Below are positions 20,389-61,500 of a stretch of DNA of 64,000 bases, piece after piece. Below the pieces are notes generated by a model. That model saw only the letters and a list, made by a program, of their open reading frames with translations, had not been told where the DNA came from and searched no databases. The first letter of the stretch is position 1; every line of letters begins with the position of its first letter. The DNA is from Trichosphaerium sp. ATCC 40318 (lineage: Eukaryota; Protista; Tubulinea): NCBI GenBank assembly GCA_038496445.1, contig JALMLS010000299.1:62001-126000 (forward strand). The letters are read 5' to 3'. A program made the position numbers and the translations under genes.

Positions 20389-23300
20389 TTACGTGATAGG
20401 GCTACCGGCAAATCGCCGGTAGATATCTTCCATCTCTGGGCATTCGACAAATTCAGTGTTGTAGTCTATCCACCATTGTTCGTGTAATTTGCATCTTTTT
20501 TGGTAAATACCGTGTATCATCTTGGCTAAGGCGAGATGTACTTTTTTTAGAGACTTAGTGATTGCTACTGAGTCGCAGCCTTGATCTTTCAGGCTGTTCA
20601 CCAGTTTTTTAGGAATGTAAGCTTTAGCAACCAGCTCCTTGGTTTCGAGACTAGGTGCCGTGTTGCGTCTAAAGGAGCAGATGTCATTCGCAGATGGCCA
20701 GAATCGTTTGTATTTGGCTCGTGGGAGGTGTTCTTTCATGGCTAGCTTTATTTCTTTAGCTGTATCTTGTCGATAACTTTCATATTTAGGGCAATCGGCG
20801 ATCACGTGCAGATTGGATTCTATTTCATTACAAAACATACAAACGTTGTCAGAGTATTTATCTTTATTAACTCCAGGCCAGTTTTGTATTGCCCTTTTAT
20901 GCATGATTTCACGTGTGCATAGTTTGTCGTTTCTCGCTTTGAATAAAGTGTTATTAATTTTTTTCATTGTGTAATCTGGTTTGCCGAAGTTAATTGCCGA
21001 GACGCTCATGTCGGCTTTATCCATGATTGGTCTGCGCTCGATGAGCTCTTTGTTCGCCTTTTCTTTAAAAGTTTGAGCTATGTATTTCCGTATGTTTCCT
21101 TCGATAGGTTTAAGTTTTTCGTCGTATAGTGTATAGTCTAGCATTCCGTTGAGTATTTTACCTTCAACTTCGTCAGCTTCTCTACCCAGATTGGCTAGTT
21201 TATCGGCTTCTTCGTTGCCTTCAAGTATCCACTCTATGTTTCTACCAAAGGTGTTTTTGAGTGTATTTACCTCCGCCATGAGTCTTCCCATGCGGTTAGG
21301 TTCCTTTTTGTATGCCTTGATTTTTTTATTGAAGTGGCTAGGTACTTTGTGTATAATGCAGTCACCGTTATTGTCCGCTCTATCTTTAAGAGCGTCGCGG
21401 AGTTCTTTAATGGCTATCGCATTGGGCGAGAAAGGGGAAACCGAGTCACTACATGCCATCTTAATGACATAAGTGGAATCCGTAAATAAGTACATAGGTT
21501 GATCTATTGGGACCACCTTAACAGCTACTATGGCTGCTTCTAATTCAGCTGCATCGATGTCTTGTTTGGTGACTGCTCTACATGCAAGGTTGTTAAGATT
21601 ATCTTCACCGAAGTAGACTCCAACCCCAGCGACATTACCATTTTTCTTTTGAATACGAGAGCCGTCTGTCCAGACGCAAACAAAGTCTTTATGCCAGTGC
21701 CAATCGTCGTCTACGCTACTGTTGATGGTGGATATGCTGTTATTGGAGAGAGTGGCCTTATTGAGGGCACATTTTATTGCCTTATTATTACCTTCAGTTA
21801 TGACTTTGGCTAGTGCGTGATAGGTATATTCGGTAACTGTTTTGCCAAATAACTTACATATTTCATTTCTGTCTACTAGTCTACCGTTACGTATCACATT
21901 GACTTTAGTGATGTCATCAAGAAGGCCTAACGATGTGAGTGTGTCACATTGTGTTTCGTTAAGCATAATGGGTAGTGGTGGTGTTTCAGTGACACTAGCC
22001 ACGCACGTCATGTTCATTTTTAGTAGCATTTTCTTATACATAGTAAGTCTGTCGTCATTAATATTTATTTTTATTTTCTTGGCATGATGAGTTTGTGCTG
22101 TTTGCCTAAGTCCTTTTCTGTTGATGGTTGGAAGGTAAATGTTGTCCGTCAGTCTTTGTTTAGTGGTGACTTGTGGGAGCGAGCCATTTTCTGCGTTAAG
22201 TGCAAATTTATATGTGTTGGCGACGAGTGCTATTTGGTTTGCAAGCATCGGTGGAACTACTTCCTTGCCATCCAGTTCGCGGCTAGCCCAGAGTTGGCAG
22301 TGTTTGGATCTAGAGGTCATAGGGATGGCTCTGAATAGCATCTGAACTACCGCTTTTTTGAGTTTTTTCATGATGTCTAGTGGAAAAGAGTAGAAATTCA
22401 TATGATATTTTAGAGCTTCGTTTAGTACTCTATTAATGATGGTTATTTTGCAGTCATATGGAACTGCTCTGCCTGATATGAGGTTTAATCTATATATGTA
22501 TGCAGACTTAACAGCTTGAGCGTCACGATTCCAGTCCAGTTTTATGTTGATGAAAATGCCTAAGTATTTGTAGGATTTACCAATTTCGATGCCTGGAAAC
22601 TCGACCGAGATATTATTTCTTATAAGTACCAGAGGGTCTGCTTCCTCTGAACTCATATATTTTGTTTTAGCTTGGTTGACTTTCCATCCATTGTAATCGC
22701 AAAAGTTAAGGAAGTGGTTCATGGCGTTGGTCAGATTTTCTTTGTTCTCTGCTATGAGTACAATGTCATCGCAGTATGCTAAGACTGAGATTTGTATGTT
22801 GGAGTTATTAGCGAACTGATAGCCTTGAATATTATTCGAGATGTATTTAATTATGGGGTTGAGGCATAGGACGAAGAGCATGGGTGATAATATATCTCCT
22901 TGTTTAACGCCATTGGTGATGTCAAATTGTTCTGAGAGACCGTCGATAGTGAGGATTTTGCCGCTACAGCCATTGTATAGGGCTGAGATAGCTTCAATCA
23001 TGATATTTGGAAACTTGTAGTACTTAAGCGTTTTGATCATAGACCAGTGTTCAACTGAGTCGAACGCTTTACTTATGTCAATGAATAACATTGCCAATTT
23101 TTTCTTTTCGGCAAATTGTCTCCTGTCTTCAATGACGTTTATGAGCGTAGTGATGTGTCCTACCGTGGATCGCTTTGGTCTGAATCCATTCTGTTCGTTG
23201 GCGAGGATGTTATTTCCATCCACAAACTCTAAGATTCTGTTATATAATAGTCTGGTGTATATTTTGTATTGAACTGCTAGGAGTGCTATAGGTCGGTAAT

Positions 23301-25479
23301 TTTTTGGATCTGTAGGCGAGGATCCTCTTTTATGTATAAGATATAAGTAAGAGTTTTTCCATGTGTCTGGCATGTAACCTTTTGTATAGCAGCCGTTAAA
23401 AAGGTTGAGCATAATATTAAGATATTCGTCATTGAGTTTTTTATATACCTCTGCAGGTATTCTGTCTTCGCCAGATTGTTTCCAGCTTTTGGTGGCTTCT
23501 ATTGCCTCTTTTAGTTCTTCCATTGTGAAGGTTTTGGTATCCATTTGAACTTTGGAAGTATCTATTTCTTCATTGAGCCAGTAAGGGTCTCCGGATGGTA
23601 CTGTGTCTACTTTGTTAAGTATTTTGTCCCAGGCTTTAACGAAAAGAGACATTTTTTCTTTATGATTGTTGGTCACAACACCTGAATCAGGATCTTTCAG
23701 AGGGCTATTAACCGCCGTACCTTTGCGTTGTAATAGGTTGTCGAAAAAGGCTTTAGGATTGTCATGGAACTTATCAATCAAACCGTTTATTTTCTCTTTT
23801 ATAGAATCCGCTTTGTATGCTGTTGCTCTTTGGTCTCGTTTTATTTTAATGTGTTTGATTATTAGTTTAATGTACTCTCCTAGGTCATCTCCATTACCTT
23901 TCTCTTTAATATTTTTTGTGATTTTGTCTTCGTCATGTATAACCAGTTTCTTACATTCTTTACGGATATTTATTAAAACGTTGAAGCATGATTTAACTTC
24001 CGAGGTTGACATGTCAATAGGATCTTTGGATTTGTTGATTAGTTTTTGTACTCTATGTTTAAGATTACCCCATTTTCTAAGTTCATGATCGTTGGATGTT
24101 CTGGTTTTGCGAAATTCTCTGTGTTTGGTGCCTACTAAGTCTTTACAGTTATCGTAGATTTCTTCTGTAAGGTTTTGCGCTAGATTGTCTAGACTGAGAA
24201 GTGAATCACTGTTCAGCCATCTGTTAAAGTTGCGATGTAGTTTATCGCTGATCATAGTATCATTGATAAGGCCTAATTTGTCACTTCTAGTATTAAGACT
24301 GTCTTTTGGTTGTTCTAGTTTGGTGCCTTCATCCGTATTTCCCTTCCACCACCATTCGAACTCAATAAGTATCGGATAATGGTCACTATCTGTGAACGGA
24401 TCATCATCAATAGAGAAGTTCCACACTCTAAGTTCGTCTGACTTTTTAACAAGGAAGAAGTCTAGAAGTGCCTTGCAGCTGAAGATTCTTTCCTTGTCTA
24501 TATATTTCATACTTACTCTGGTGAACATTTCTTTATTTGGGTATAGTATTCTATGAGCTGCTACTAAATCTCTCTCTTGCATGAGGTCTGAAAGCGCTTC
24601 TGATTTATGATCTGAGAATTGCATATTGTGGTTATCTGCGTACCATCTATCAGTGTCTTTATTAAGTACTGAGTTGAAATCGCCACCGATGATTACGTGT
24701 TTTTTCGTACTGTTGAATTTATTTAAATATACATTGATTATATTATTAACTTTACAGAAAAATTGATCTTGTTCGTTAGAACCACTGCAAGGGGAGTAGA
24801 TGTTGGTGATTATGATGGTCGTGTTCTCATCTCCAATTGCTATAAGTAAGATTTTTCTGGACGTGTCGTAGTATACTTCTTTGACTTTGTCTACTAATTC
24901 TTTACGGACGAAAATACTGATGCCTTCTGATTTTTTGAATACTTTGAGTTTGTCTTTTTTTATGCGTAACTTGTCAATGGCTGTCCTTTTTTCTTCTTCA
25001 GTAAGGTCTCTTTTGAGTTTGGCTATTTGTCCACGGAACCATTTTTCTCTCTTATCTTCTGTTGTGAGTAAATTGGTGTACATTTTGTAATTGTCGAGGA
25101 GCGCCGAATCAGTGTCGTGTTTTAATTCAGCTTTATTACACATCATTTCTTGTACTAGGATTACGTCCGCTTGCATTTTCCTAGCTTGTAACATGATTAA
25201 TCCTGAGCTGATAAACCATTTACCTCTGCAGTTGATTGAACAAACTTTTATACAACTCTTATCGCCGCTAATGTTAATGTGATCTGTGTTGTCCGCCCTA
25301 ATTGCGAACTCCAATTGTTTATTGGTAATTTCGTTTTTTGAAAAACCTCCGTTATTGTATCTTTTTGCTATATTACGAATTTCTACTTCTCTGTGTTCGG
25401 TACTGCGGATGCTCGGCCTCGTTCCAGAATGCCCTTTATTTCTGGAGCGAAGACCATAATTGTGTTTGCTACTTAACAT
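20389..25479 (-). CDS. LINE ORF2: apurinic endonuclease + reverse transcriptase + RNase H + CCHC zinc finger, intronless
   Basis: APE: SINCRG, ILVQE, NIYSP, GGDFN, SDHYPI. RT: NYRPIALL, QNGFR, DISKAFDSV, GVKQGDILSP, YCDD, YKYLG. RNase H: WTDGS, AAELEAA, TDSTY, KVPSH, GNEEADKLA. CMFC-x7-H-x4-C knuckle. Confidence 0.97.
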   Translation of the reverse strand: MLSSKHNYGLRSRNKGHSGTRPSIRSTEHREVEIRNIAKRYNNGGFSKNEITNKQLEFAIRADNTDHINISGDKSCIKVCSINCRGKWFISSGLIMLQARKMQADVILVQEMMCNKAELKHDTDSALLDNYKMYTNLLTTEDKREKWFRGQIAKLKRDLTEEEKRTAIDKLRIKKDKLKVFKKSEGISIFVRKELVDKVKEVYYDTSRKILLIAIGDENTTIIITNIYSPCSGSNEQDQFFCKVNNIINVYLNKFNSTKKHVIIGGDFNSVLNKDTDRWYADNHNMQFSDHKSEALSDLMQERDLVAAHRILYPNKEMFTRVSMKYIDKERIFSCKALLDFFLVKKSDELRVWNFSIDDDPFTDSDHYPILIEFEWWWKGNTDEGTKLEQPKDSLNTRSDKLGLINDTMISDKLHRNFNRWLNSDSLLSLDNLAQNLTEEIYDNCKDLVGTKHREFRKTRTSNDHELRKWGNLKHRVQKLINKSKDPIDMSTSEVKSCFNVLINIRKECKKLVIHDEDKITKNIKEKGNGDDLGEYIKLIIKHIKIKRDQRATAYKADSIKEKINGLIDKFHDNPKAFFDNLLQRKGTAVNSPLKDPDSGVVTNNHKEKMSLFVKAWDKILNKVDTVPSGDPYWLNEEIDTSKVQMDTKTFTMEELKEAIEATKSWKQSGEDRIPAEVYKKLNDEYLNIMLNLFNGCYTKGYMPDTWKNSYLYLIHKRGSSPTDPKNYRPIALLAVQYKIYTRLLYNRILEFVDGNNILANEQNGFRPKRSTVGHITTLINVIEDRRQFAEKKKLAMLFIDISKAFDSVEHWSMIKTLKYYKFPNIMIEAISALYNGCSGKILTIDGLSEQFDITNGVKQGDILSPMLFVLCLNPIIKYISNNIQGYQFANNSNIQISVLAYCDDIVLIAENKENLTNAMNHFLNFCDYNGWKVNQAKTKYMSSEEADPLVLIRNNISVEFPGIEIGKSYKYLGIFINIKLDWNRDAQAVKSAYIYRLNLISGRAVPYDCKITIINRVLNEALKYHMNFYSFPLDIMKKLKKAVVQMLFRAIPMTSRSKHCQLWASRELDGKEVVPPMLANQIALVANTYKFALNAENGSLPQVTTKQRLTDNIYLPTINRKGLRQTAQTHHAKKIKININDDRLTMYKKMLLKMNMTCVASVTETPPLPIMLNETQCDTLTSLGLLDDITKVNVIRNGRLVDRNEICKLFGKTVTEYTYHALAKVITEGNNKAIKCALNKATLSNNSISTINSSVDDDWHWHKDFVCVWTDGSRIQKKNGNVAGVGVYFGEDNLNNLACRAVTKQDIDAAELEAAIVAVKVVPIDQPMYLFTDSTYVIKMACSDSVSPFSPNAIAIKELRDALKDRADNNGDCIIHKVPSHFNKKIKAYKKEPNRMGRLMAEVNTLKNTFGRNIEWILEGNEEADKLANLGREADEVEGKILNGMLDYTLYDEKLKPIEGNIRKYIAQTFKEKANKELIERRPIMDKADMSVSAINFGKPDYTMKKINNTLFKARNDKLCTREIMHKRAIQNWPGVNKDKYSDNVCMFCNEIESNLHVIADCPKYESYRQDTAKEIKLAMKEHLPRAKYKRFWPSANDICSFRRNTAPSLETKELVAKAYIPKKLVNSLKDQGCDSVAITKSLKKVHLALAKMIHGIYQKRCKLHEQWWIDYNTEFVECPEMEDIYRRFAGSPIT

Positions 25480-28400
25480 ATTTGTATAATTTATTATTGC
25501 GGTTCAAGATAGGGCTCTCGTTTACAAGGGCTGTAAACTTACGAGCGTGTGTGTGATAGTAGTTATGATTTCGGTTTATACGCATCAAATACTTTGTACT
25601 ATGAGGATTTTGTGTATATCCAGCGATGATGCAGCATATTTTATGCGTTATGTAAAGAAAAGGCGCAAAGTTGTAACAAATAGGTTCCCAAATGGTATAG
25701 TTATCTTTGTTACGCGTAGAGAAACATATATGTGTGTTTGTTACGCGAAGGGAAAAGGAAGAGATTCTTGGATGTTTAAAAGGTTTGTTTAGTTTCATAC
25801 CAAGTATCAACGAGCGTATACTTACTAGAAAGAAGGGAAATTTGTGTGGAGAAAGTTTTCGAAGCGAGTTATAGTCATTTAATTGTTTCAACGCAGATGA
25901 ACAGTAAAAGGTATGTGGTAAAAGAATTACTAAGGAACCAAGTATTTGAGGAGCTTTAAATTTATTTTTTTTTAGAACACAGCAGAACCTTGAATACCAA
26001 TCGAGTTTGAAGACTGTAAGTAATTTATACGTCTTGTTTTGGAGCTGATAATTTGTCCAGTTTTTCTTGAGTGGCCTTGCTGAGGCCGATGTCACATTCA
26101 ACGTCTCCCAGATAGTCATCAAGAGAAGGCTTAGCGGTGATGGATTGCTTACCGGCAGTGGCTCTTGCTCTGGAGCGCGATCTAGACGATCTGGTGGCGA
26201 CTCTACAAATTCTGCCCGATCCGAGTCCAGTATTTGGGTCGATGTTTTCCTTCTCGATGATGTTTTTAATGTCTGACATTTCTTCGTCAGAGTTGGCTGT
26301 GTCAGACCAGGAGATTTCATCATCTCCGGTAACATCAATGTAAGTGGATTTTTTCTTCTCCTTCTTTTCTTTGACGGCATTAGAGGTGTTGTTTGTCGCA
26401 TTGGATGAGTTTTCAATATCAAGAGAGCCACCGTTTTTGAGAATTTCTCTAGTGACAAGTTCACGTGTATCATTGATACTAAATTAATAATGTAAGAATA
26501 CTGTGTAATATTATGTAAGTGAAAGATAAAAAATACTTGCGCTTTAAGGAGTGAGACTACGTTTCTGGATAGGCCTTGGATCATTCCTTTTACATACACA
26601 ATTTCGTTATGCATTGTGAGAAGGGCTGGGTTGTTAGGTTTTACCGTTTTCCCGTTGTTGGTGCATCTACCTTCCTTGTAGTTGAATCCATTCATTGGTT
26701 CCATAGGGAGTCTATCAAGGAGGGTTCTATTGTAATAGATTTCAGGCGAGGTGAGGTAAGTGATTTCGTTTTCGAAGGCGCTTTTGGTAAGCGTAACATA
26801 GACGCATCCGTCTATGGCGTCATCTTTTCGAGGATCCATGGCAGGAGCGAGATCTTTGGTGTCAAGCCTGTCTTTGAAGAGCTTGTGCATGTATTTAAGA
26901 CCGGTGGCAATAGGCAAACCACGAGGCATCTTAGGTACAATCAAGGTGTATTTGTGATGTGGTTTGTATGGCGTTTGGAGAAACATTGTCCAATTATCTT
27001 CGCCGAACATGTTAGTCATTCTGATGGCGTCGTTTCGAGCGTGAGCGTCAACAAAAACTGCACTACCGTATTGGTGAGTTTTGTTCCAAGAGGCTGCCAA
27101 CATTACTGAGTTGTTACGGTTTTTGCGGCGATTGGCTTTACGATTATGGGCACCAACTATGTTTGTGATAGATGGGTCGATGAGTTTGCCTATTTTTATG
27201 TGAGAATATGATATTGTATAATTGAGAATTAACGATGAATGTGTTTTAATGTGAGAGAGAAAACAGATCCAAGAGTGGGTTTTGTTGGTGTCGTGATTCA
27301 TTTTCTTTGAATAAAAAGGAGTGTTTTGGGTTTGTTTTGGGATTGAGAAGAAGAAACAAAGAAGAAATAGATGTGTATGCGTGGTAGTTTTGTTATAGTT
27401 TTTGGTAGTATTGTGAGCGATAACGATACCTCTAGTGATGGAAAGCAGCGTGGCAACTGCGCAATCAGTGGTTTTGGAGTAGAACACATGTGTTTTGGGG
27501 CGTCTTTCAAGGCGAACCGCCAGTTCGCGACAGGTAGAAGCATCTTGGAGGAATACGTAGACCATCGGCATAAAATCAGGACCCATTTTGAACTTGTTGA
27601 TTTCGATCCCCTCAGCAAGATCTTCAACCGATACCGATATACCTCTAGAGGTGACGGTATGATCGTTGACCACCACTATTAGGAGATATCCATCCCGAGT
27701 CTCAAAAGGTTCATCAAGAAAACTAATAAAGTGAGAATTATGTGGGAAGTGTCTAAAAATGAGATTCTTTTGATAATATAATAGTGAGGAATTAAAGTCG
27801 AACTGTTTGCATTCTTGAGAAACATCTGGGAGGAAGGAGGACCCGTTATCATCGTCATCGTATCGATCATCATCTCGACGACGACGTTTGTTAGGGCCTT
27901 TGCCTTTACGGTTGATTCTGGAGCTATCCAGATGAGGGATAGTTAACACTAGGCGTTGTGACATGTTTGATAGTTGTTTAATAATGGTTTTAGGGTGGGA
28001 GAGGATTAGACCTTCAAAGTTTTTTATTTCCTTTTTGATCGATTTGGAAAAAAGTTTTCTTATCTCAGTATTGTGGGTAGGTTGGTTCGCAAAACTTTTT
28101 CTGGTACTTTCTCTTGCGATATGAGACTTGGGTACTTTTGTTATTTCCCCGTATTTTTTAAAGTATTTTTTACTAATGTATTTAAATGTGAATTGGAAGT
28201 CATGTGTAAATTTTTTCGATTTTTTGTCGTTCCCTATTACGGTGGAATTGTTGAGGAGATATTGTGGAGAAATCCTCTTAAATTTGGCGTAAACGCCAAG
28301 TTTTGTTTTAAGTTTTAGTCGTGGAATTAAATTTAGGTCTAACTGTTGTGTTTTACGGCCTATATATGTGATGTGGAAGGAAAGAGGATGGTCTATTGTG

Positions 28401-28600
28401 TTATTTGGCTTTTTAAAGTAGTAGCCATTACTAAATGTTTTCCCGCCAATGTTCTTGAACATCGATAAACTCGGTCCTTGCATTGTCTGTTTGTCACATT
28501 CAGCTTTAGCTGACGTAGATAAAGTGAACTTAAGAATTGCAGCAGTTACTCCCTTCTGGGCAGATAACCTCCCATCGTAATGGGTGTATGTGTTTGTCAT
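25469..28600 (-). CDS. Stop-free long ORF of the unspliced LINE RNA (1043 aa from the first in-frame ATG), overlapping the ORF2 start by 11 nt
   Basis: ORF track 25469..28666 (GTG start); first in-frame ATG at 28600; ends AAA TAT GTT AAG TAG, which contains the ORF2 ATG in the +1 frame. Confidence 0.6.
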   Translation of the reverse strand: MTNTYTHYDGRLSAQKGVTAAILKFTLSTSAKAECDKQTMQGPSLSMFKNIGGKTFSNGYYFKKPNNTIDHPLSFHITYIGRKTQQLDLNLIPRLKLKTKLGVYAKFKRISPQYLLNNSTVIGNDKKSKKFTHDFQFTFKYISKKYFKKYGEITKVPKSHIARESTRKSFANQPTHNTEIRKLFSKSIKKEIKNFEGLILSHPKTIIKQLSNMSQRLVLTIPHLDSSRINRKGKGPNKRRRRDDDRYDDDDNGSSFLPDVSQECKQFDFNSSLLYYQKNLIFRHFPHNSHFISFLDEPFETRDGYLLIVVVNDHTVTSRGISVSVEDLAEGIEINKFKMGPDFMPMVYVFLQDASTCRELAVRLERRPKTHVFYSKTTDCAVATLLSITRGIVIAHNTTKNYNKTTTHTHLFLLCFFFSIPKQTQNTPFYSKKMNHDTNKTHSWICFLSHIKTHSSLILNYTISYSHIKIGKLIDPSITNIVGAHNRKANRRKNRNNSVMLAASWNKTHQYGSAVFVDAHARNDAIRMTNMFGEDNWTMFLQTPYKPHHKYTLIVPKMPRGLPIATGLKYMHKLFKDRLDTKDLAPAMDPRKDDAIDGCVYVTLTKSAFENEITYLTSPEIYYNRTLLDRLPMEPMNGFNYKEGRCTNNGKTVKPNNPALLTMHNEIVYVKGMIQGLSRNVVSLLKAQVFFIFHLHNITQYSYIINLVSMIHVNLSLEKFSKTVALLILKTHPMRQTTPLMPSKKRRRRKNPLTLMLPEMMKSPGLTQPTLTKKCQTLKTSSRRKTSTQILDSDRAEFVESPPDRLDRAPEQEPLPVSNPSPLSLLLMTIWETLNVTSASARPLKKNWTNYQLQNKTYKLLTVFKLDWYSRFCCVLKKNKFKAPQILGSLVILLPHTFYCSSALKQLNDYNSLRKLSPHKFPFFLVSIRSLILGMKLNKPFKHPRISSFSLRVTNTHICFSTRNKDNYTIWEPICYNFAPFLYITHKICCIIAGYTQNPHSTKYLMRINRNHNYYHTHARKFTALVNESPILNRNNKLYKYVK
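26025..27964 (-). CDS. LINE ORF1, spliced form (~520-545 aa), RRM-like domains plus coiled coil and charged tail
   Basis: Removing introns 27429-27190 (GT-AG) and 26540-26479 (GC-AG) gives a continuous protein-like sequence (ITRG-KLIDPS; SLLKA-INDTRELVTRE). RNP-like motifs YGSAVFVDAHARNDAI, YTLIVPKMP, GCVYVTL. AATAAA ~60 nt after the stop. Start codon inferred. Confidence 0.65.
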
Positions 28601-28776
28601 ACTCTGGCAAAGTTTTTTAACTATTGAATACGATAAACCATAAGGTTTATGGAGCGAACGGTACACATTTAGTGTCAGTGTGACGTAGCTAGATCTATCT
28701 TGTTATCGATAGGGGCTATGTAGAAAAGAACAAACAATTTCAGACGAGCTTTCACACTCGAATTTTGCCGTTTTTT

Positions 28777-31576: not shown

Positions 31577-32955
31577 TTAGTCTACCAATCTCAAAACTTT
31601 CTCAGATAAAATCTTCATTTCTTCAGCTGTTATTCTCTGTCGTACAAAGCTTTCACCTGACCAAGGTTCCAAGGAAGCAAAACACGATGTTTTTGTTGCT
31701 TGAGGAGAATTAAGTACCAAAGTAATAGTACAACCATCAATAGCGTTCACGCTATGTAAAACGGAAGGATGCATATAATAAAGACCACCTTTCGATACTG
31801 TCGCTTGTTCTACTCTTGCTAATGATATTGTACCCAAAGGATTGATATTAAATACATTTGTACCATCCTCAGTAACAGTAGGGGAATAAACGTATTTTTG
31901 AAATGATATAACTTCAGATTCTTGTTCTTCTGGTACACAATGTAAAGGTTCTTCCCATAATTCTTGAGTGATACTACCGTGTACTATATGAGAAACAAAA
32001 TGGTTTCTATGACTATGGACTTCCTCTTGAGCTTCTGTAAATTCTTCAGGTGAAAACACGTGCATTCGAAGTTTCCATGCGGAACGTTTTCCTTTCAATA
32101 GAACTGTCTTATCAAATAAATCGTGATGGTAAGAGTTTCCGACACATTCGTCAAAATGAGGTTGAGATGCCATTAATCTGGATAGTAGTGTCTTGAAATG
32201 AGAGCCAAGGCCATATACTAGCGAATCAACAGAAGTAGCATCAATCACGTGAGGTTGACAAGCAGAACGCTCAATGACTCCTTCAATCAAGTCTCGAATT
32301 TGCTCTATTGAATCGCCTCCTTCACAATTCGTAAAAATATCACCCACGTGTGCTACATAGCGACTTCGTGCTTTCTCATCGCATATTGGGAATAGTTTTT
32401 GCATGTGTGGAATACCTAAAGGGGTTAGAAACACGAATTACAAAGAGGATTTTTGACGACAAGAAAGGAAAAAAAGGTTGTACGTGTTTCCCATGCATTT
32501 TGTTCTCCTTTCTTTATTATCAATTCACAGTCACTGGAAGTTATAGGACGTCCTTTCATTACTCTGCATTCAGCCTTGACTGTTTTACGCAGTTCCAAAA
32601 ATTGTTGCTTAGATTCTCTGTCTGCGTCGCGCATCAGACGAAGAGTTTCGTAAAGTGTATCAAGTTTTGCTTTTTTCTCAGGATTTCGCCTGTCTCCTCG
32701 CATGGAATTTCTTACGGTCTTTATTTCTGCTCTTATGGCCCTCATTCTACTCAATGCTGCTTGTCTTTTCGTTTTCCCGATGCGTCTAAGCTCTTGCGAA
32801 AACACGGGATAAACAATGCGTTTAAACCCTCTCTTCGCAGGTGGGGGTTCCTCATCATCGTTTAAGGGTTGCTCTGTGGTTTTAGACGTATTTGATGTAT
32901 CTACACCTCCATTTAAAGGAACTACTCGCCTATATGGTTGACCGCGTTCTGCCAT
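31577..32955 (-). CDS. Two-exon protein: basic helical N-terminus plus cupin (cysteine-dioxygenase-like) domain
   Basis: GTACAA...TTTAG intron (~32421-32483) joins the two ORFs in frame (WETR-IPHMQK); cupin ligands HSHRNHFVSHIVHG and YYMHPSVLHSV. Confidence 0.72.
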
Positions 32956-33813: not shown

Positions 33814-36460
33814 ATGCATCAGCTCCACTCTGCATTACTGATCATACTTTGTAGTGCAATTTATACAGCCCTTTGTGGATTTTCACAAGATGTACGGCCG
33901 TATCAAGTAGTTTTGAGCTTACGTATCTATGAGTAGGTTATTCTTAATGAAATAGGCCTTGACAACGGAGAAGGGCCCGAATACGTAGAGCTTAAGAATC
34001 TTAGAGCAAGCGAAAGCACAATTACTGGCTGGACAGTAAAAATAATTAATCATGGCTGTTCTGGAACTATTACGCACCAATACACGTTCCCAGACTCAAC
34101 AGGTACGTTTTGTTTAATTTCACAAAAACACGTCTAATTCCTATGTAGTTGTTCCAGCTGGAGGCCATATCTTATATGTAGACAACGAGAATCCCAACTG
34201 TATCCCATCGGTTGGATGCAATGTAATCACTGCATCGTCAAATATAGTTAATTCTTTGACATCAGAAGACGATGTAGAAATTGTGTTGCTAGACGATACA
34301 GACACTTGCATGGACTACGTGGCAATAGGCGCTACTAATGACAATCAAGGTAAGCACAATATAGTAAACACTTTCTGTGTAACCTTTGTCGCTAGGGGGA
34401 TGCTTGTGGAATACCAACTTATTACAAGCAAGCGACTACGGCATTATCCAAAGAGCTACTAGTATTCCTTCCGCAAATTGCTACGATTGGGTCGCAGCTT
34501 CAACCACAACCCTTTGTATGGATGGAGTAGGGTCACCACTTATGGATTGTAACGGAACAATCAATGTGTGCCCTCCTACTGCACCTCCTACGACCTTACC
34601 TCCAACGACGCTCCCTCCAACAACACTACCTCCAACGACGCTTCCTCCAACAACACTACCTCCAACAACGCTCCCTCCAACAACGCTCCCTCCAACAACA
34701 CTACCTCCAACAACACTACCTCCAACGACGCTTCCTCCAACAACGCTACCTCCAACAACACTACCTCCAACAACACTACCTCCAACTACTGAAGCGCCAA
34801 GTACTGAAGCGCCAAGTACTGAAGCACCATCTACTGAAGCACCAACTACTGAAGCACCAAGTACTGAAGCGCCAAGTACTGAAGCACCATCTACTGAAGC
34901 ACCAACTACTGAAGCGCCAAGTACTGAAGCGCCAAGTACTGAAGCACCATCTACTGAAGCACCAAGTACTGAAGCACCAAGTACTGAAGCACCATCTACT
35001 GAAGCACCAACTACTGAAGCGCCAAGTACTGAAGCACCATCTACTGAAGCACCAACTACTGAAGCGCCAAGTACTGAAGCACCATCTACTGAAGCACCAA
35101 CTACTGAAGCGCCAACTACTGAAGCACCAAGTACTGAAGAACCAAGTACCGAAGCGCCAAGTACTGAAGCGCCAAGTACTGAAGCGCCAAGTACTGAAGC
35201 GCCAAGTACTGAAGCTCCAAGTACTGGAGAACCAACTACTGAAGCACCATCTGACGGAACAAAAGCTCCCACCACTGTTGCACCATCCAGAGTTGAGACG
35301 CCTACTACTAAAGCGCCAACTGCTGCTCCACCAACGTTTCCAATTACTATTTTGACATCAGCGCCTACAACTAGACCTCCAACCACAGAAGCACCTACTG
35401 ATAGAATTGAGCCTACTACTGTAGTACCAACACCATTCGTATTTCCAAAAGTAAGATACTATTCAAAACAAGATTAAAGGCTAACGTGTATCTTAGATAG
35501 AACCACGTCTTGACTGCGTAAGAGATAATCTAGATGGAACATTCACTGCGTTCCTTGGTTGGAATCGCGATGTTCCTCCAGAAACTCTAACAATCCCTGT
35601 TGGAGACAACAACTTCGTTTCTCCTGAACCAGCATCAGGTTTTGGAGATCAACCTACTGAATTTGGTGGTACTACTCAATTCTATCCAGTAGTATCATAC
35701 GCACTGATATTCAGTGGTGAAACAACAACATGGACCCTAGGCGTACGCATTTCTTTTTTAGAATATTCACTTTGTTTTGATGTATAACTTTACTTTAGCT
35801 CGGTGTTGTAAGCTTCAGTGGAGACGAGACTGATCTACGTTGTAAAGACGATGCAATTGGTATTAATTGGGTTATTCCAAGTCCATTCCCTACAAGTGAT
35901 ACCTTGTTGGATCAAGTTATAGCAATAATTGTTAAAAACATTAACTTTGCTGGAACTTCAGCAACATACACTCAAAGCGCTGGAACAACTGCAAGTCAAG
36001 CAACACTACTCGAAATGACAATCACATCTAGTGGTACGTTATTGCAAACACTTTCTTTTTTTTGTGTCTATGTACTCACTCTTTTCTACGCAGAATCTGG
36101 TATCGCTGAAGCTGTAGGAGCGTTCATGAGCGATGAAGCTCGTGTTGAACAAACGAGAGTGGAAATAGCAGCTTTATTTTCTACAACTGTTGACGTACGC
36201 ATTGATATTGTTTTTCCGTTGTTTAGACGCTAACATGTTTTTTTAGACTATTCCAATTGTAGCAAAGCCTACAACCGTTAAGCCTAGTACAGCACGTACA
36301 AATACTGGTTTAACTTCATCTAGCAGTAAAAAGGGATGGACTACTGCACTTTTCGGTACGCTTGCGACTATTGTCTGAAAAAGTGCTTCTTGGGAGCTTT
36401 CAGGTTTACTAATGTTGGATAGGTGCTTTGGTTTTGTTTCTTGCTATCGTAACAATGTAA
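33814..36460 (+). CDS. Cell-surface mucin-like protein: signal peptide, lamin-tail-like domain, Pro/Thr repeats, bacterial-type beta module, hydrophobic C-terminus
   Basis: MHQLHSALLIILCSAI signal; VILNEI...PEYVELKN...ITGWTV (LTD pattern); PPTTL/PSTEA repeats; terminal ALVLFLAIVTM. Confidence 0.8.
34585..35250 (+). repeat. Coding 15-bp tandem repeats: ~14x PPTTL then ~30x P(S/T)TEA
   Basis: cctccaacaacacta and ccaagtactgaagcg units with synonymous variation. Confidence 0.95.
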
Positions 36461-36835: not shown

Positions 36836-37924
36836 ATGTTTTGCAAGGTACGTACAGACAAATATTAACTTATTATATACCTATTGGTGTATATAATTAC
36901 TTCTAAAACAAACTACAAGGTTGTATTGTTTTGTGGTTTGTTGTGTGCTCTTGCATTAGCTCAAGAATGCACCATCGCTGAAGTTAAACAATTTGGAGGC
37001 AACTTCGCACCGAGGAATTGGGCATTTTGTGCTGGGCAATTACTAGGTATGTCATTGCTGTTGGTTGGCGATTAGGAATCTAAATTATTCTTTACGTTAG
37101 CGATAAGTTCGAACCAAGCTCTGTTTGCCCTTCTGGGTACCACATACGGTGGGGATGGCCGAACTACATTTGCGTACGTAGTTGATTACGTTTGCATAGC
37201 ACAAGTTTTAAATAGAGTTATAGGCTTCCTGATATGCGTGGACGCTCTCCAATGGGCGCTGGTACAGGTCCAGGTACGTACTGCTCTGTTTTTACTCAGG
37301 TTTTGGGTGTTTTGTCGAATAACGTCGTATAGGTCTTACCCCAAGGACACTGGGTCAAAAAATTGGTTCTGAAGATGCTCCTCTGCCTGCCCATGGGCAC
37401 AGTATTAACTTGGGTGCTGCAACTGTTGCGACTACCACACAACTTTCTGGAAGCCCAGGTTTATCCGGAATTAGCGTCTCTTCCGCGTCACAAACAGTAG
37501 AATTTCAGGCGTCCACTACTACTTCAAGAAAGGAGGCGCCAGTTCCTCCACCATGTAGTGCAACACCTTTGCAAAACATGCTAAGAGTTGCAAACTCTTG
37601 TCAAGAATTAGTGGACAATTGCCCTATAGCAATTGTGAATGCTACAGATATAGGAACAGCATCTAATACTATAGATACAACTGGATTTGGAGTTGACGCT
37701 TCCAACATTGCTGTAGAAGGTAAACAACATTTTTGACCTATTTTCTATTCTCTTTTTTTTTTGTATTGCGTTGTCTAACCACACTGCTAGTTATTGCAAC
37801 TACAACGGCTACACTTTCAAGTGGTTCAGTATCATCAACAACTCCTGGTGCTACAAACGTACACCCTGTCTTAGCAACAAACTATATCATCTGCTTGCAG
37901 GGAGTTTTCCCTTCACGTAATTAA
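36836..37924 (+). CDS. Phage tail-collar / microcystin-dependent protein (MdpB)-like protein with signal peptide and 5 introns
   Basis: Spliced: IAEVKQFGGNFAPRNWAFCAGQLLAISSNQALFALLGTTYGGDGRTTFALPDMRGRSPMGAGTGPGLTPRTLGQKIG...LPAHGH...HPVLATNYIICLQGVFPSRN. Confidence 0.9.
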
Positions 37925-38234
37925 GTGCGGAGATTGGTTGATGGTTCAAACTCAAATAAATTAAATAGCTTTTCAACACGCGCAGAATAATCACCTTGTA
38001 TTCTACTTTGTTCAATTATTTTTTCGCTCACTTATGTCATACACTCTCCTATTAAGCTCAAAAAATTACTAAATGTCAACGTAAGATATAAGATTTTGAT
38101 GCAAAGTTGTTTTAATGTCTAAACTACAAGTTGTACAATTTGCATTTTACAGGCGTTTTACAGGGAGTTTGTTTATGCATTAACCTTTTAAATGAGCTGT
38201 GGTACGAGTGATCTAGGCTCAAACTATCGACGTG

Positions 38235-38371
38235 GAGGTTGCACATCTTAGGTGTGATCAAACACAAGGCGAACTAAGGACTTTAAACCTCTTCTATCTA
38301 ATAAAAAGAAAAAAAAACAAAAGCAAAAGTCCTTAGTTCGTCTCATGTCGTCACACCGGACGTGCAACCTC
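38235..38371 (-). other. Imperfect ~45-bp inverted repeat (RNA hairpin) spanning the stop codon and 3' UTR
   Basis: gaggttgcac...cgaactaaggacttt (38235-38284) versus aaagtccttagttcg...gtgcaacctc (38326-38371). Confidence 0.8.
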
Positions 38372-40072
38372 TTCTAACCAGTCCAGTTCCAAGTGACTAT
38401 CCGTATTGAATAAATCCTCAAAAGGCTGGGGGTTCCACACGTCGGTAGCAACAGAACCAGCCTACATCTGATATTTAGATTAACCAACACGTTTTGTCAC
38501 AAAAAAAAATATACAAAACTAAGTACGTACACTGCTCAAGGCGCTTGCTGCGAGGTGTGCTCTTTTCAAATCACTATTCTCATTTTTGAGTTGTTGATTT
38601 TCCATTTTTAAGTCATTTGTAAGACGTCTTGCTGAAAAAAGCTCCATTTGAACGTTTTTTAACTCTTCTCTTAGTTTTAAAATCTCAGAATGCTCTGCTG
38701 TTGTGAGCTGAATACTCCCAGCACTTGGAGGGAGAGGTACCATTGAACCAGAACCAGGGGTTTCTAGAACAAAGGACATAGGGTCTTCAACAGGCACATT
38801 ATTCTCAACTTTGCGTATCATTTCGGCTACATGATAACCGGATTTATACTCGGCTACTGCTTGTCTACCGTCTTGAAAACTAACCAACAACGAAGAGTGT
38901 TGGTCAGGAGATATCCTATACAGGCGAATAAGCTCGGTTGATTTGTTTTCAATTTTTGTTTTCCTTTCTTTCGAAAAAAGAAAAAAAAAGCTCTAATCGT
39001 GTTGTGAACGTACTCTATTATGTATTTCTTTCCTCGTAAATGTGCTTCTCTATCACTTCGTGATAATGCACCAACAATATGCCTCTGGGCGAGCTGTTCT
39101 TTCCAGAATTGATGAACGCTTTTTCCACCAACATACAACATATAGAACTTTAGTATACCAGTTACTATGAATGCGTGTTTCATTCTGTTTTCTTCGCTTT
39201 AAGGGAAAAAGTTAGTAAAATAGACCAAAAAAGACACTACTTTGGCTTTTAGCCTAAACGTACTTTATAGCTGAAAATATTTCGCTTGGAGTACAACCCC
39301 ACGCGTGCTTTTGTACTTTTCGTTTCTTTGAGCGAGTTAGACTATTACTTCTTTCGTTATGAGCCGACCCGCCGTATTGCTTGTGATACAATTCAAGCCA
39401 ATCTGCGATGTAGTGTTGTAATTGTGTATGTGTTGGCTGGTTGTAAGACTAAAACGATAAATGTGAGTCTTCTTGCAAAAAACGAAAGCTTTTTCTTCTT
39501 GTACGTACGATGAAGTGTGGCCATAGTTCTTTTACGCAAGTGGCTAAGCCGTTTCCGGGACCTCGATGAAACCCGATTGGAAAAGCTCTTTGAATAGTTG
39601 CGCCGCTCTGAAAGCGTACTGTTATAATTATCAAAGAAGGCTTGCTGGGCCTAAATACCATTTAAAACCTTTAAAAAACAAAAACCTCGGCGTACGGTTG
39701 CGCTAACAACGCAGGCGATAAATCAATCATCTTTCCTGAGCTAAATGAGCTACTAGGGTTGTGTTTGGGAAAGTGTTGTTTTGCCTTTAGAAGAAATAAG
39801 CTTTGAGTAGTTCTACAAAGATTCAGGCGTACCAAATCAACGTGAGCACAGTGTATAGCCATAATTTGATGCTGTGTTACAATCTCCACTGGTAGAGGGT
39901 AAAGGATGTTTCTAACCTTATCTTTTATCCTGCATAACAGCAAACGCGGATGTATGTTGAAGGAAGGTGGTAAATTTCTTTGCAGGTTGAATATTTGTTC
40001 TCTGGGAGACAGCGGTGGGAGCTCTCTGGGAGAGAACCCCAAGTCGCTAGCTTTACGTTTTCGTGGGTACAT
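38351..40072 (-). CDS. Uncharacterised multi-exon protein with NLS-like start, coiled coil and acidic C-terminal tail
   Basis: MYPRKRK start; EILKLREELKNVQMELF...LKMENQQLKNENSDLK; last exon ...FEDLFNTDSHLELDWLEEVARPV*. Confidence 0.6.
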
Positions 40073-55585: not shown

Positions 55586-58500
55586 ATGGAGTCTGTCAGC
55601 TCTAAAGCAACTGCAGAGTCTATTGGGGTATTAATGAGGTACAAACAAAACATTTTCAATCCCTGAGTTGACATGTCTCAAAAGCTATGTCCCAAAGATC
55701 GTCATACGCCGGTTCTTTCACGACCAATCTCCATTGGAATTACCGGAGACTGACAAGTTCTGTTCCGCAGTGTTATTCGCAGATATTAGGTAATTGTACT
55801 CCTAATAAACTCTGAAGCTCTAACCTTTTTGTTTTAGTGGTACACAAGACGCGTTTTATCGTTGCTGGTCACTCATCCACATAGGTTTTACTCCGCTTAC
55901 AGAATCCCTTGCAAATATGGGCGCAGAGGGTGTAGAGAAGGCATCATTTTTACACTTTTATTGTGACCTTTTTTTATAATTATATTTCTAGTTAACACAC
56001 CATCTCAATGATTACTTTGGTAGTATTATTGATACAATACTAAGGTGGGGTGGCGATATTGTGAAATTCGCTGGAGATGCTTTATTGGCGATCTGGCCTG
56101 CTTCAAAACGCGCAAGCTTACACACGTCATGCGTAATGGTGCGTTTTTAGCTAGTTTAAGCCTCTACTAATATTTAAAAGGCGTGTCAGTGCGCTTTGAG
56201 TTTACAACAGGAACTTGGAACCTACGTGGTGCAGAAAAACACGCTAAAATTACATGTACAATCGTCTTTAAATGTAGTTTTATTAGTAATCATATTTCAC
56301 AGATTGGTGTATCCGCTGGAGATTTAACCGGTATACACGTCGGTGGCGTACAAGGTAGAGTTGAATACTTCCTGGCAGGAGACCCAATAGATCAGGTGCG
56401 TTCATGAATTTCGGTCTTTTTCGATCTTTTTGTTTTTTACTCGGAACAGGTGAGTTCCTGTGAGGCGCAAGCTGAGCCAGGAGAAACATTTATATCTCCT
56501 CAATGCTATACTGCTATGCGTAATGATTTTGTTGGTATGTTACATTCCGAAAACTCGGAATTGACTTGTTATTTTTGTAGGTGAAAAAATAGAAAAAAAT
56601 TTTAAACTTACAGGTTTAAAAAATACCCCTCTAGCAAGGCGTATACCTGCGTTTCCAAAGTTGATGCCTTATGAGCAACAGTACGCCTATTCTAATGGGT
56701 TCTTCAGTTCGAATGTTAATATTTTAATTAGACTACGTGGTTATGTTCCCAAAGCAGTGTTGATGCATTTACAACATGGGCATAAAAGTCAATATATTGC
56801 GGAGCTTCGTACAGTGTCTGTTATTTTTGTAAATTTAGATGACAGATGCGTGGACGAGGAGGGTACACAGAGGATTCAAAAAGCAGTGAGTTCGATTCAA
56901 AAGACGTTACAACAACTTGAAGGAACAGTAAGTGCACAAGCATTATTATCAAAACCTTACTCTTTTTTGATAGACGCGTCAGTTCATTCAAGATGACAAA
57001 GGAAGCGTTTTCTTAGCTTGTTTTGGACTCCCACCTCTAAGTCATCAAGATGATCCAGCAAGAGCTATCACAGCAGCTATTCACTTTAGAGCAGCGCTTG
57101 AAGAGATAGGTATTCAACCAAAGATTGGTGTTACAACAGGTAGAGCATTTTGTGGTGCTGTAGGGAGCGAACGACGTAGGGAGTATGCTATGGTTGGTGA
57201 CATTGTCAACTTGTCGGCAAGGCTTATGTGCGCTTCTGGAAAGTTCGGTGGCATTCTTGCGGATGAAGCAACCGTTACAGGTATGTTTAAGTTGAATTCC
57301 AGATGTGTTTCAAGCAGTGGCTTACTGTTCTTTTTTTTTCTTAGTTGCTAAAAAACATGGACAAGAATTCCAACGGTTAGAGCCAATAAAAGTAAAAGGA
57401 AAAAAACATCCTATCAATATTTATCTTCCATTGGCAAAGAAGTCTCCAAGTATTCTTAATACTGGAAACAAGCGTCTTTCTAAACGCTACTCAAGAGGAG
57501 AATCAGACCACAATGATGGTAAAGACAAAAAAAAATGCCTGACACTATTAATTACCTTCTAACAAATTTGTATTAGCACTTATTGGAGATCAACACATTG
57601 ATACAATCCGACTCATAAAGTATAAGCTGGCTCTACTAAAACAACGTCAAAAGGGTAATGTTATCATGCTTGAAGGTGAAACTGGTGTTGGTAAAACAGC
57701 TGTTATTATGGAAGTAGTCAAAACATTGGTACGCGAATACACCCTCACACAAGCAAAGAAATTACCTCTTATTAATTAATAATACAGAAACCGTCTATGT
57801 ATGTTGGTACTTGTGATAGCCAGCAACCTATGTTAGGTAAATACTCAACAATCAGTTACTTTCGTAATAGTGCTTACTTGTTTTAAAAGCTTGGTCTGCA
57901 ATCATGAGTTCAGTGTTGCACTTGGAGGCACCTAATATGGATGATGCACAAGTTGGAAAAGCGATAAAAAAGCAATTAGCAAGTACGTAAAACATAGATA
58001 AGAGAAAAAAAATGATTAACCTCATTTCGCTTGTTCTAGACATACCACTCAAAGAAGGCGAAACGTCTTGGATTAAGTATGCTTCCCTCTTAAAGGTAAG
58101 AGGTCCTTACGTGTCACGTTTCTTAAGTGTTATTATAGGAGTTGTTTCCTTTATGTGGCATTGAAGAAACTGAGGAAAGTGCTTGTCTTGCATCTCAAGA
58201 TAGAAGTGAAAAGTTCCAAAGAATGCTTATAAAAATATTAAAAACATTGGTGCCTACAGGGAGTGTTATCACAATTGACGACGCTCATTATATGAATTCA
58301 ACTGAATGGGCACTTACATTGGCTGTATGTCAATCACTAAAAGGTACTTACGCATTCGAGGTTAAACGCTGAAACTGTTTTTTCTAGGAATCTTGATTTG
58401 TATTTCTCTACAACCTCTCACACCTGCTCCATTTGAGTACTCCCAAATGGACCATTGTCGTAACGCACACCATGTACATATTAAAAATCTGTCCGATACG

Positions 58501-61500
58501 GCTTCACGCAGTCTCATGGGAAGGTTCTTTGGTGTGGATCCAAGTAAAGTGCCGAACGATGTATTCTTGAAGATAAAGGAGCTGAGTACGACAAAACAAG
58601 CTTAAGATCACTCAACCTAATCCTTTGCTCTTTAGCACGTGGAAACCCTTTCTTAATTGGAGAATATGTATCTGCAGCATTCGATCAAGGTAATGTAGAG
58701 ATTAAAGATGGAGAGATTGTTAGACAATCAGAGAATGAAGAATTGTCATTACCAAGTAGTGTGCGTCATCATTCAATGAGTACTTCACGTTCACAACTTG
58801 ACTAAATTGTAGCTCTCTCACTTGATAACAAGCAAAGTTGATAGGTTGCCTTTAGTACAACAGACAATTCTTAAAGTAGCCTCTGTTATTGGAAAGACTT
58901 TTGAGGTGGCGCTATTAAAGAAGCTGTTGCCAGATTGTCCAAGTACTTTTATTTAGACTATTTACGAAAAGTTGAGTATTAACTATGTCTGTGTAGAAGA
59001 TAAAGAGCTGTTCCGTCAGTTAATGAGCCTGGAAGAAGCCCAGTTTATAGTATCAGAGGAAGATTCCGACCCAAAACCAGTACCTGTCTTGACGCCGAGA
59101 GGCGGTTCTAAAAGCGCTGCCCAGTTAAATACAAAGAAGATAATTAAGAAGCCAGAGCAATCAAAGCACGTGATTTACAAAAAACGTTCATTTTTTGAAG
59201 AAAAGAATTTTTTTTTGGTTTTTTTCTCTTTAGACTGGCACGTATACTTATGCTTTGTTGGATAGGCCCGAAAGGTATAGATCTTCTCCTATGAAAATGA
59301 TAGGCACTGGTTATAGATTACGGCGTACAGTATCTAAAGAGTCACGCCAGACTGCCTTGTTCAGACACAAGTCAATTTTTCAATTTCGTAACACAACAAT
59401 ACAACAAGTACGTTTTTGAATTATTACTACAGGTTTTTTTATTTACTTACCTTCTTTGAAAAAGGCGATTTATGGCATTATGCTTTTCTCTTTGAGGAGA
59501 GAACTTCATATTAAGGTGGCAAAGTGGCTAGAGACTGAGCACGCATTGATGCTTTCAAGCTACTATGACATCTTAGGTTACCATTACACCATGAGTGGTG
59601 AAGAACCTGCCATAGCTCAAAAATACTATTTAAAAGCTGGTGAGAAGTACCTTGCAGAATTCGCTATAAAGGAGGCTGTAAAGAGGTTCAATCAAGCCAT
59701 TGAAGTTGGTGAGAAGATGGAGGATACAAAAAAGAAACATAAACTAGTTTATCATGGTAAAGAGAAGAAAGAAGCTTTGGATAAAATCATGGATGCTGTT
59801 AAGTTACAGAGGAAGCTTGGAAAGGCTTACTTAAGGATGGGAAAGTATAATGAAGCTGATGAGCATTTACGAGCAGCATTAGCTTGTATGCGTGTATCTC
59901 TAAACAGCTCCTCTAAGCAAACAAAGAAAATCATTAGTACTTATCCTGCAATACTTCAACGAGAGGTTATACTTGCACTTCTGTTGTTGAGCAAACTCCA
60001 CTTTCAGTATGTCGCTTTTCTTACACGTGCAATATTTACCTGTATTTTAGCTCGAATAGGCACGTGTCTGTACATGCTAGCCAGCAAGCACTCGAAATTG
60101 CTGAAAAGTGTAACTTTTGGGATGAACAAAGTGAGGCTTGTGCTCAATGTAGTTTACACAAGTAAGTAGTTTTTAAGTACCCGACATGCACATTATTCTT
60201 TACCATGGTTACAATTCTAATATTTGGTTAGAGCTTTAGCAAATGACCAAAAAGGTGCTATGGGCTTATTGGAGAGAGGCAAGACACTTGCCGGTGACAA
60301 ACTTGCTGTTCTCTCGCATCTGGAGAGAGCACATGGTAATGCGTTACAATTTTTTGGATCATGGAGTGAGGTATGCGTTGTCTATTATCACGTGCGCTTG
60401 TTTAAGGTAAATTAGGCAATCCAACACTACGAAAAAGCTAAGAAAATATGTAAAGAGACAAACAACCACATGGAGTCTGAAGAGATAGAAACTGAGATTT
60501 CTGTACTTCACTTCTTGAAAGGCAACCTAAGAGCTAGTCTTCATTTATCGTCAACAGCTGTAAAGAGCGCTAGAATGAGGTATAAACAGTCAAAAGTAGT
60601 TTCCTTTCTCATTGTTTTATACTAGAGGTGACATTCATTCTCTCATACAAGCCTTAACGTCTCAGGCATTGGTTCATCTACAACTCTGTAATATTTCTAA
60701 GGCGTCTTCAAAGGTAAACACATCACTTCATGTTCTCCAGCAACAACTAAAATTCACTAGGTGGATCAAATACGCGTTGGCTTGCAATCTCTTGGTGCTG
60801 GTGCAGCTATTTCTCATCAATTGAATTACCAAGCACTTGCGGCTCTTGTGCATCAACGAAATTATAGACCAGCAGAGGCTTGGGCTTGTTGTGTTAAAGT
60901 TGAAGAGATTTTGTCTACGTCCAAGCCAGAACCATCTTTTGCTTCATTCCCTGGCTTCACTGTAAGTCACATGATATGATTGCATACCAACAACTGACAC
61001 ATTGTAGCTACTTCCAGAAGTGTACATTGGCTTTTTATTGGATGAGCAAAGACTGACTTACTTGGAAGTTTCTGAAGCTAAGCTTGCTAAAAAAGCACGT
61101 GCATCAATTGCTGAATTGAAGAAGCTTTGCGCTTCGATTAGCATATTTACACCAAGGACACAGCTCCTAGAAGGGTTCATGAGCTATTACCAAGGTACGA
61201 TACAACCTTGAAACTCAAGCATGAACTACAAACCAGTACACGTTGCTAAAATATGCCCAAGGACATGACAATAAAGCTCAGATGTTCTGGAGTATTGGAA
61301 AGCAAATTGCAATGAAGTATGGTATGAAAAACGAACTGGCTCTCATAGGTGTACGTCCACAATTTTATAGATCACGTGATTTTTGAAACAAGAAGAATTT
61401 CTTATTGTACGCGTACCTTATGTTATTCTTTAGGGACATATGAACCTTTGTACAAAGAAACCTACGAACACTATTCTAATTTCATCGTTCCCTAAAACTG

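Follow-up and report, generated by a model that had tools for sequence, protein, structure and literature searches.

A five-intron collar-domain gene in a eukaryotic chromosome, probably of bacterial origin and encoding a putative secreted fibre-tip protein

A gene with five introns at positions 36836-37924 (+) of the window (the whole 64-kb stretch of DNA that was analyzed) encodes a signal-bearing collar-domain (PF07484) protein, and its host-like introns and codon use support residence in a eukaryotic chromosome. The product would be a secreted, homotrimeric fibre-tip protein derived from a bacterial subtype that we call QEC (defined below), in which a lengthened needle carries a new tip for contact with a ligand outside the cell, a microbial surface being the likeliest; in this reading as a whole, our confidence is evenly balanced, and its parts are graded separately below.

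The five introns, all GT-AG, 50-72 nt long and 25-41% GC, lie exactly at the positions given in an earlier note on this DNA, and their removal leaves an intact open reading frame of 783 nt (260 amino acids and a stop codon), which ends in ICLQGVFPSRN, as that note had also claimed. Exon 1 (36836..36847; all features on the + strand) spans 12 nt with the ATG and residues 1-4, and is required, since intron 1 (36848..36919, 72 nt, phase 0, GTACGT..AG) contains no in-frame ATG and no alternative is found in frame ahead of exon 2. Exon 2 (36920..37046) carries the remaining signal peptide (to 36961, residue 18), the mature start Q-E-C with Cys21 (36968-36970), and the beginning of the collar domain, which is interrupted by intron 2 (37047..37100, 54 nt, phase 1). 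The core of the domain follows in exon 3 (37101..37173) and, after intron 3 (37174..37223, 50 nt, phase 2, GTACGT..AG), exon 4 (37224..37273) holds its end (LPD.RGR motif) and a Gly-rich loop. Intron 4 (37274..37332, 59 nt, phase 1, GTACGT..AG) precedes exon 5 (37333..37719, residues 89-216), which encodes a linker shortened by 5 residues, the HxH motif, an outgoing arm, a tip, and most of a returning arm; the latter is split by intron 5 (37720..37790, 71 nt, phase 1) and completed in exon 6 (37791..37924), together with the C-terminal collar-completing strand with Cys251 (37892-37894), the terminal G.FPSRN motif, and the stop codon. Introns 1 and 2 have lengths divisible by three and each contains in-frame stops, and introns 3-5 would shift the frame if retained. 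Thus, the protein is not encodable by unspliced DNA, and splicing at all five introns can be deduced from the DNA.

The earlier note held that the introns argue against contamination, and the surroundings of the gene bear this out. The window contains genes of eukaryotic type around the collar gene (Kri1, PIG-S, Longin, and RCC1), to which the Pfam scan adds a cyclase/TPR gene and a non-LTR retrotransposon, and the GC3 of the collar gene (0.29) falls within the values of 13 other window frames (0.25-0.43). The GTACGT donor of three of the five collar-gene introns is also that of the 63-nt intron (38468-38530) in the downstream neighbor, a gene convergent with the collar gene (38104-38992, -), and a public contig of 1008 nt, from run X3 (presumably RNA), is identical to this neighbor minus the intron. 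Given the eukaryotic neighbors, the skipped intron, the common donor, and the GC3 in the host range, we regard the collar gene as host DNA. Contamination is very unlikely. Although the collar region is highly identical to bacterial proteins, a contaminant or a misassembly would be a barely credible explanation for a gene with five spliceosomal introns in such a setting. Pieces without differences from five sequencing runs, sampled at a small share, fell on the downstream neighbor only (38104-38915), and the zero cover of the collar gene in such shares is no evidence on its expression. Pieces of run X5 matching exon 3 were rejected as copies of this gene, as 7-11 of 44-61 letters differ and they continue without introns; by sequence, these are collar genes of other organisms. 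Within the 64-kb window, to which the paralogue count is limited, the collar gene is present as a single copy.

Several other features of the window were recorded. The multi-intron gene upstream (33814-36460, +) lies on the same strand, ends ~380 nt ahead of the collar gene, and encodes a signal peptide, long PPTT/TEAPS mucin repeats, a partial match to the Lamin Tail Domain (PF00932, E 1.6e-5 on one exon, below the cut-off), and a hydrophobic C-terminal end that may resemble a GPI signal. Contigs of runs X1, X3, X4, and X5 match its PPTT repeats at <90% identity and then diverge, possibly being paralogues. The retrotransposon (20389-28702, -) has an intact 1704-aa frame (endonuclease, RVT_1, and RNase H), ahead of which lies a frame of 1077 aa, free of stops and of Pfam matches. 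A 286-aa intron-free frame at 31577-32437 (-), also without a Pfam match, contains a His-x-His motif presumably like that of cupin dioxygenases, and is a possible second bacterial acquisition. At 56565-60169 (+), an adenylate/guanylate cyclase domain is followed by TPR repeats, a product that we take to resemble the soluble cyclases of the ATPase-TPR type.

Family membership was assessed by scanning the exons separately. Exon 2 alone matches positions 2-23 of Pfam Collar (PF07484; 25.0 bits, E 1.9e-5) and exon 3 alone positions 25-47 (37.1 bits, E 3.2e-9), each above the gathering cut-off of 24 bits, and since these positions are colinear across intron 2, a chance match is excluded. Against a profile built from 72 bacterial homologues, the spliced product reaches 184 bits (E 2e-58); it also keeps 20 of the 20 residues invariant in the 72-row alignment (HxH among them), and unites the MdpB-like marks (a collar, the HxH motif, and G.[FY]P.R at the end) in one short chain. 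The bacterial tail-collar/MdpB pattern, which the earlier note had traced from end to end, is therefore well founded. The first homologues found were "microcystin-dependent" proteins of 171-191 residues, and a collection of 156 collar ORFs was gathered from 91 loci, of which 86 had at least one collar ORF and 19 of these 86 had three. No family match for the collar protein was found in NCBIfam.

The protein is nevertheless a variant rather than a typical MdpB-like member, because of its shortened linker and its longer middle, which in the typical form stays below ~100 residues. From Glu101 to the HxH motif (Glu101-His110, 37371..37400), the spacing is 6 residues, versus 11 in all 115 motif matches of the first homologue set and in 213 of 218 in a second, larger one, where none has 6. 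In addition, the exon 2 search against 1.84 billion representatives, a library without taxonomy that may include eukaryotic members, gave 284 matches, and the short linker occurs in none of the best 150. The 5-residue deletion is thus unique among the homologues examined; it hits a highly kept spacing and might impair folding. Relatives of exon 5, a low-complexity query that makes for weak searches, were found neither among longer proteins nor in the Atlas nor in phages, and when the intron 3 junction was searched for as a degenerate DNA pattern, two matches appeared in metagenome contigs, both to intronless bacterial genes.

The signal peptide had been regarded in the earlier note as an addition to the bacterial protein. 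The hydrophobic N-terminal stretch is present (KD13 maximum of 2.95, the top window of the protein, with at most 1.56 elsewhere), but it does not appear to be added, since many bacterial homologues have the same arrangement of a signal peptide followed by Q-E/D-C, so that it was probably inherited. Signal peptides were called here by a purpose-made hydrophobicity rule. We define the QEC subtype by a signal peptide, then Q-E/D-C, plus a C-terminal Cys, and the spliced protein carries this signature, with Cys21 by the mature N-terminus and Cys251 in the C-terminal strand. A protein from an alphaproteobacterial MAG (L065), the mature chain of which begins Q-E-C, was found among the few signal-bearing early ORFs, and the subtype was exposed by a search with it (best 120 listed) and by the exon 2 search (best 150 of 284); source names of two QEC proteins are Paracoccaceae and Parvularculaceae. 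Of 273 homologues with 160-240 residues, 206 were scorable single-domain proteins, and an N-terminal Cys is present in 33 of them, 32 with a signal-peptide-like start. All 33 have the C-terminal Cys, versus 89 of the 173 without an N-terminal one, counts that are not independent events and come from a QEC set enriched by searching with a QEC query; in the earlier collection, just 1 of 156 ORFs has the N-terminal Cys. As the Cys pair is confined to exported forms and sits on two chain ends that are both in the collar, a disulfide between N- and C-terminus is probable for the subtype, and in the spliced protein a Cys21-Cys251 bond would close the chain ends. We consider it likely, from these sequence features, that the protein descends from the secreted QEC type of a bacterial donor and inherited both the Cys pair and the export signal, which would now serve ER entry.

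In three of three genomes tested, all incomplete MAGs, the signal-bearing gene is the sole PF07484 match, which favors a homotrimer. No description or function of a QEC-type secreted subtype was found in the literature searched. Among the other bacterial loci, one collar triplet (L002, 2099-3965) has signal peptides on all three members, unlike the usual signal-less triplets, and another (L092, 1-1707) has two clear ones, its third member being cut by the contig end. Four multi-collar bacterial proteins (P0134, P0226, P0230, and P0245) end in a hydrophobic stretch and an Arg run, which we take to recall PEP-CTERM-type sorting tails, in which case they would be fused forms of the triplet with a covalent anchor.

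As to the origin of the gene, the horizontal transfer proposed in the earlier note is the most likely explanation for a collar region 78% identical to a bacterial protein within an intron-bearing host gene, and the transfer was very probably from a bacterium, not a phage, to a eukaryote. Four of the five best matches in a full-length BLASTP among 281 proteins are of the QEC type. Once the signal peptide and Cys are left out, the best scores (131-130 bits) spread across classes and do not single out QEC, and it is again a QEC protein that gives the highest identity (78.5% across 79 residues of the collar region). Redundancy filtering left 87 of 199 homologues, and a tree of these with the spliced protein (88 rows, 114 columns), built without the signal peptide and the two Cys columns, places five QEC proteins as the nearest rows to the spliced protein. 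The enclosing group (support 86/95) holds 28 of the 30 QEC rows; it is an unstarred polytomy which also includes 12 signal-bearing rows without the Cys and 6 without a signal. The terminal branch of the spliced protein is 0.46, versus a median of 0.23.

Genes often pass from bacteria to protists and gain introns there, and an event of this type is therefore not surprising. Since collar-domain annotations exist in various protist proteomes, the gene may represent one among several transfers of this kind; the same annotations would also fit an older, vertically inherited eukaryotic family. We hold the latter, or an arrival via a giant virus, virophage, or phage, to be improbable. Virophages do carry collar triplets (PMC12724248), but the best phage matches to the QEC subtype are at most ~40% identical against 78% for the bacterial collar, which makes the phage origin suggested in the earlier note unlikely. 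Moreover, the collar proteins at 11 viral-contig loci look bacterial-type or are short collar-only ones, none of which outscores the best bacterial ones, no viral genes were found among the window frames scanned, and the Atlas clusters nearest to the subtype are 90-100% bacterial, a share that does not give the range of the family. Three viral contigs (L009-L011) carry 105-aa collar-only proteins without HxH or needle, in which the terminal G.YPSR is kept.

Compared with its bacterial relatives, the spliced protein has gained five introns, lost five residues between Glu and HxH, acquired a longer middle, and lost the tip motif L[AGS]x3-12Y, which occurs in 29 of 33 QEC proteins. The expanded, Cys-containing and Ser/Thr-rich middle pointed out earlier is indeed found: it has ~138 residues (57-92 in bacterial homologues), three Cys, and 30% Ser+Thr versus a QEC median of 22%. 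Just after HxH (His108 and His110, the predicted metal site of the trimer by the role described in PMC12609058), the Ser/Thr share of 0.33 equals the median of bacterial stems (0.33). The middle can be divided by eye into an outgoing arm of 44 residues (111-154, 37401..37532; 41% Ser+Thr, 1 Pro), possibly a beta strand of the needle, a tip segment of 36 residues (155-190, 37533..37640; 6 Pro, Cys162, Cys177, and Cys184, with one N-glycosylation sequon at 190) that stands in for the bacterial tip motif, and a returning arm of 46 residues (191-236, 37641..37849; 41% Thr/Val/Ile, 1 Pro). Mirror symmetry of the two arms was rejected, as 1,586 of 2,000 shuffles scored as high.

A structural frame for this middle comes from an AlphaFold model of the L065 QEC protein (pLDDT 75.7, pTM 0.45), in which Ser/Thr-rich strands (97-111 and 138-151) flank the tip. 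The model matches cyanophage A-1(L) and T4 fibres; it aligns from first to last strand with T4 gp12 (1ocy; Z 8.2, rmsd 2.3, 72 aligned) and with the gp37 tip (2xgf; Z 8.2, rmsd 2.6, 68 aligned), matches that are chiefly to the collar and concern the bacterial homologue rather than the spliced protein. Exon 5 folded alone was uninformative (pLDDT 39). According to PMC12609058, the chain of gp37-type tips doubles back at a head that contacts the receptor, which gives a needle of six strands where HxH motifs bind metal; in T4-type needles such motifs are numerous, and their number possibly scales with length. On this basis, the middle is probably an elongated out-and-back beta needle with a new Cys/Pro-rich tip rather than a mucin linker. 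The arms would have grown from ~15 to ~45 residues, about three times the bacterial length; the single HxH for a needle of ~45 residues counts against this interpretation. By the fold of the family, three chains would join by the collar and the HxH metal site, each running out and back, and it is on balance probable that the protein is a secreted homotrimer of this kind. The lengthening of the arms and the replacement of the bacterial tip by a Cys/Pro-rich one are seen in the sequence, and the new tip would contain disulfides.

What the protein does outside the cell is less certain. The spliced protein has no anchor domain, a point against the reading as a whole. By analogy, it could serve in soluble form as a lectin or adhesin, with bacteria or a substrate as its target. 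The closest analogue for which binding has been tested comes from the DSLV2 virophage, the small collar proteins of which form ~16-nm trimers and bind Synechococcus LPS (PMC12724248), and it is from these trimers that the suggestion of binding to bacterial or other microbial surfaces derives, which for the present protein we advance tentatively and with some doubt. Its main rival is a glycosylated structural coat protein: with the same origin and secretion, the middle would be a flexible O-glycosylated stalk or loop, and the collar would serve merely for trimerization or as a scaffold closed by a disulfide, in a protein of a coat, matrix, or cyst wall that recognizes no specific ligand. This alternative, which we hold to be somewhat unlikely, gains from the Ser+Thr content of the middle, the lost tip motif, the one HxH, and the secreted mucin-like protein encoded upstream. 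It loses from the single Pro per arm, unlike the adjoining PPTT mucin, from the near-equal arms about a Cys/Pro-rich core, with Thr, Val, and Ile so frequent in the returning one, and from the bacterial stems, which are equally Ser/Thr-rich just after HxH and are modelled as strands.

Loss of function after the transfer, leaving a gene now silent or in decay, could explain the unique deletion, the missing tip motif, and a terminal branch of twice the median length. However, despite this divergence the frame has no stops or frameshifts, the five introns gained are still canonical, all the invariant residues and both Cys are retained, and codon use is fully host-like, so that we give decay little credence. 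At the speculative end, the secreted needle could be the own recognition molecule of a bacteria-eating protist, remade from a receptor-binding tip of phage type, i.e., a disulfide-closed, metal-pinned trimer whose new tip tags prey and which is maybe docked on the neighboring lamin-tail-domain mucin, a picture that we think quite improbable.

Neither a eukaryotic nor a secreted bacterial collar protein was found in the open-access articles searched, and such genes may be listed in genome annotations given as supplements. What is less usual here is the cargo, namely a fibre-tip fold known from phages as a putative secreted protein of a cellular eukaryote, presumably kept under selection, and the remodelling falls exactly on the part that sets binding specificity. 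If bacteria are bound, a protein of phage ancestry would serve the recognition of prey or surfaces, and nature would provide a case showing to what extent such a needle can be lengthened and re-tipped. In addition, the delineation of a secreted, often single-gene bacterial subtype offers an easier entry to the function of MdpB-like proteins.

Among known systems, the closest are the bacterial MdpB-like QEC proteins (e.g., P0037, P0039, P0228, and L065), which share with the spliced protein the signal peptide, Q-E/D-C, the collar, one HxH, Ser/Thr-rich stems, and the C-terminal IIC..G.FPSR, with an identity of up to 78% across 79 residues of the collar. The spliced protein differs from them in its five introns, the 5-residue deletion before HxH, a middle of 138 residues versus 60-84 (31 proteins), the lost tip motif, and three extra Cys. 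Bacterial collar triplets belong to the same protein family and length class; however, they mostly lack a signal peptide and occur in runs of three, whereas the spliced gene is single and its product presumably secreted. With the T4 gp37 tip (2XGF) and gp12 (1OCY), the likeness lies in a collar formed from N- and C-terminal parts, a chain that doubles back (by way of the homologue model), and HxH, of which there is one here and seven in gp37 (PMC12609058); in contrast to these, the spliced protein stands alone, is presumably secreted without a virion-attachment part, and has an unrelated tip. The DSLV2 virophage tripartite tail proteins (PMC12724248) are likewise small stand-alone PF07484 proteins, of 196-247 aa, which trimerize and bind a bacterial surface, but there a heterotrimer from three genes is carried on a virion, and here a single chromosomal, spliced gene encodes a protein with its own signal peptide.
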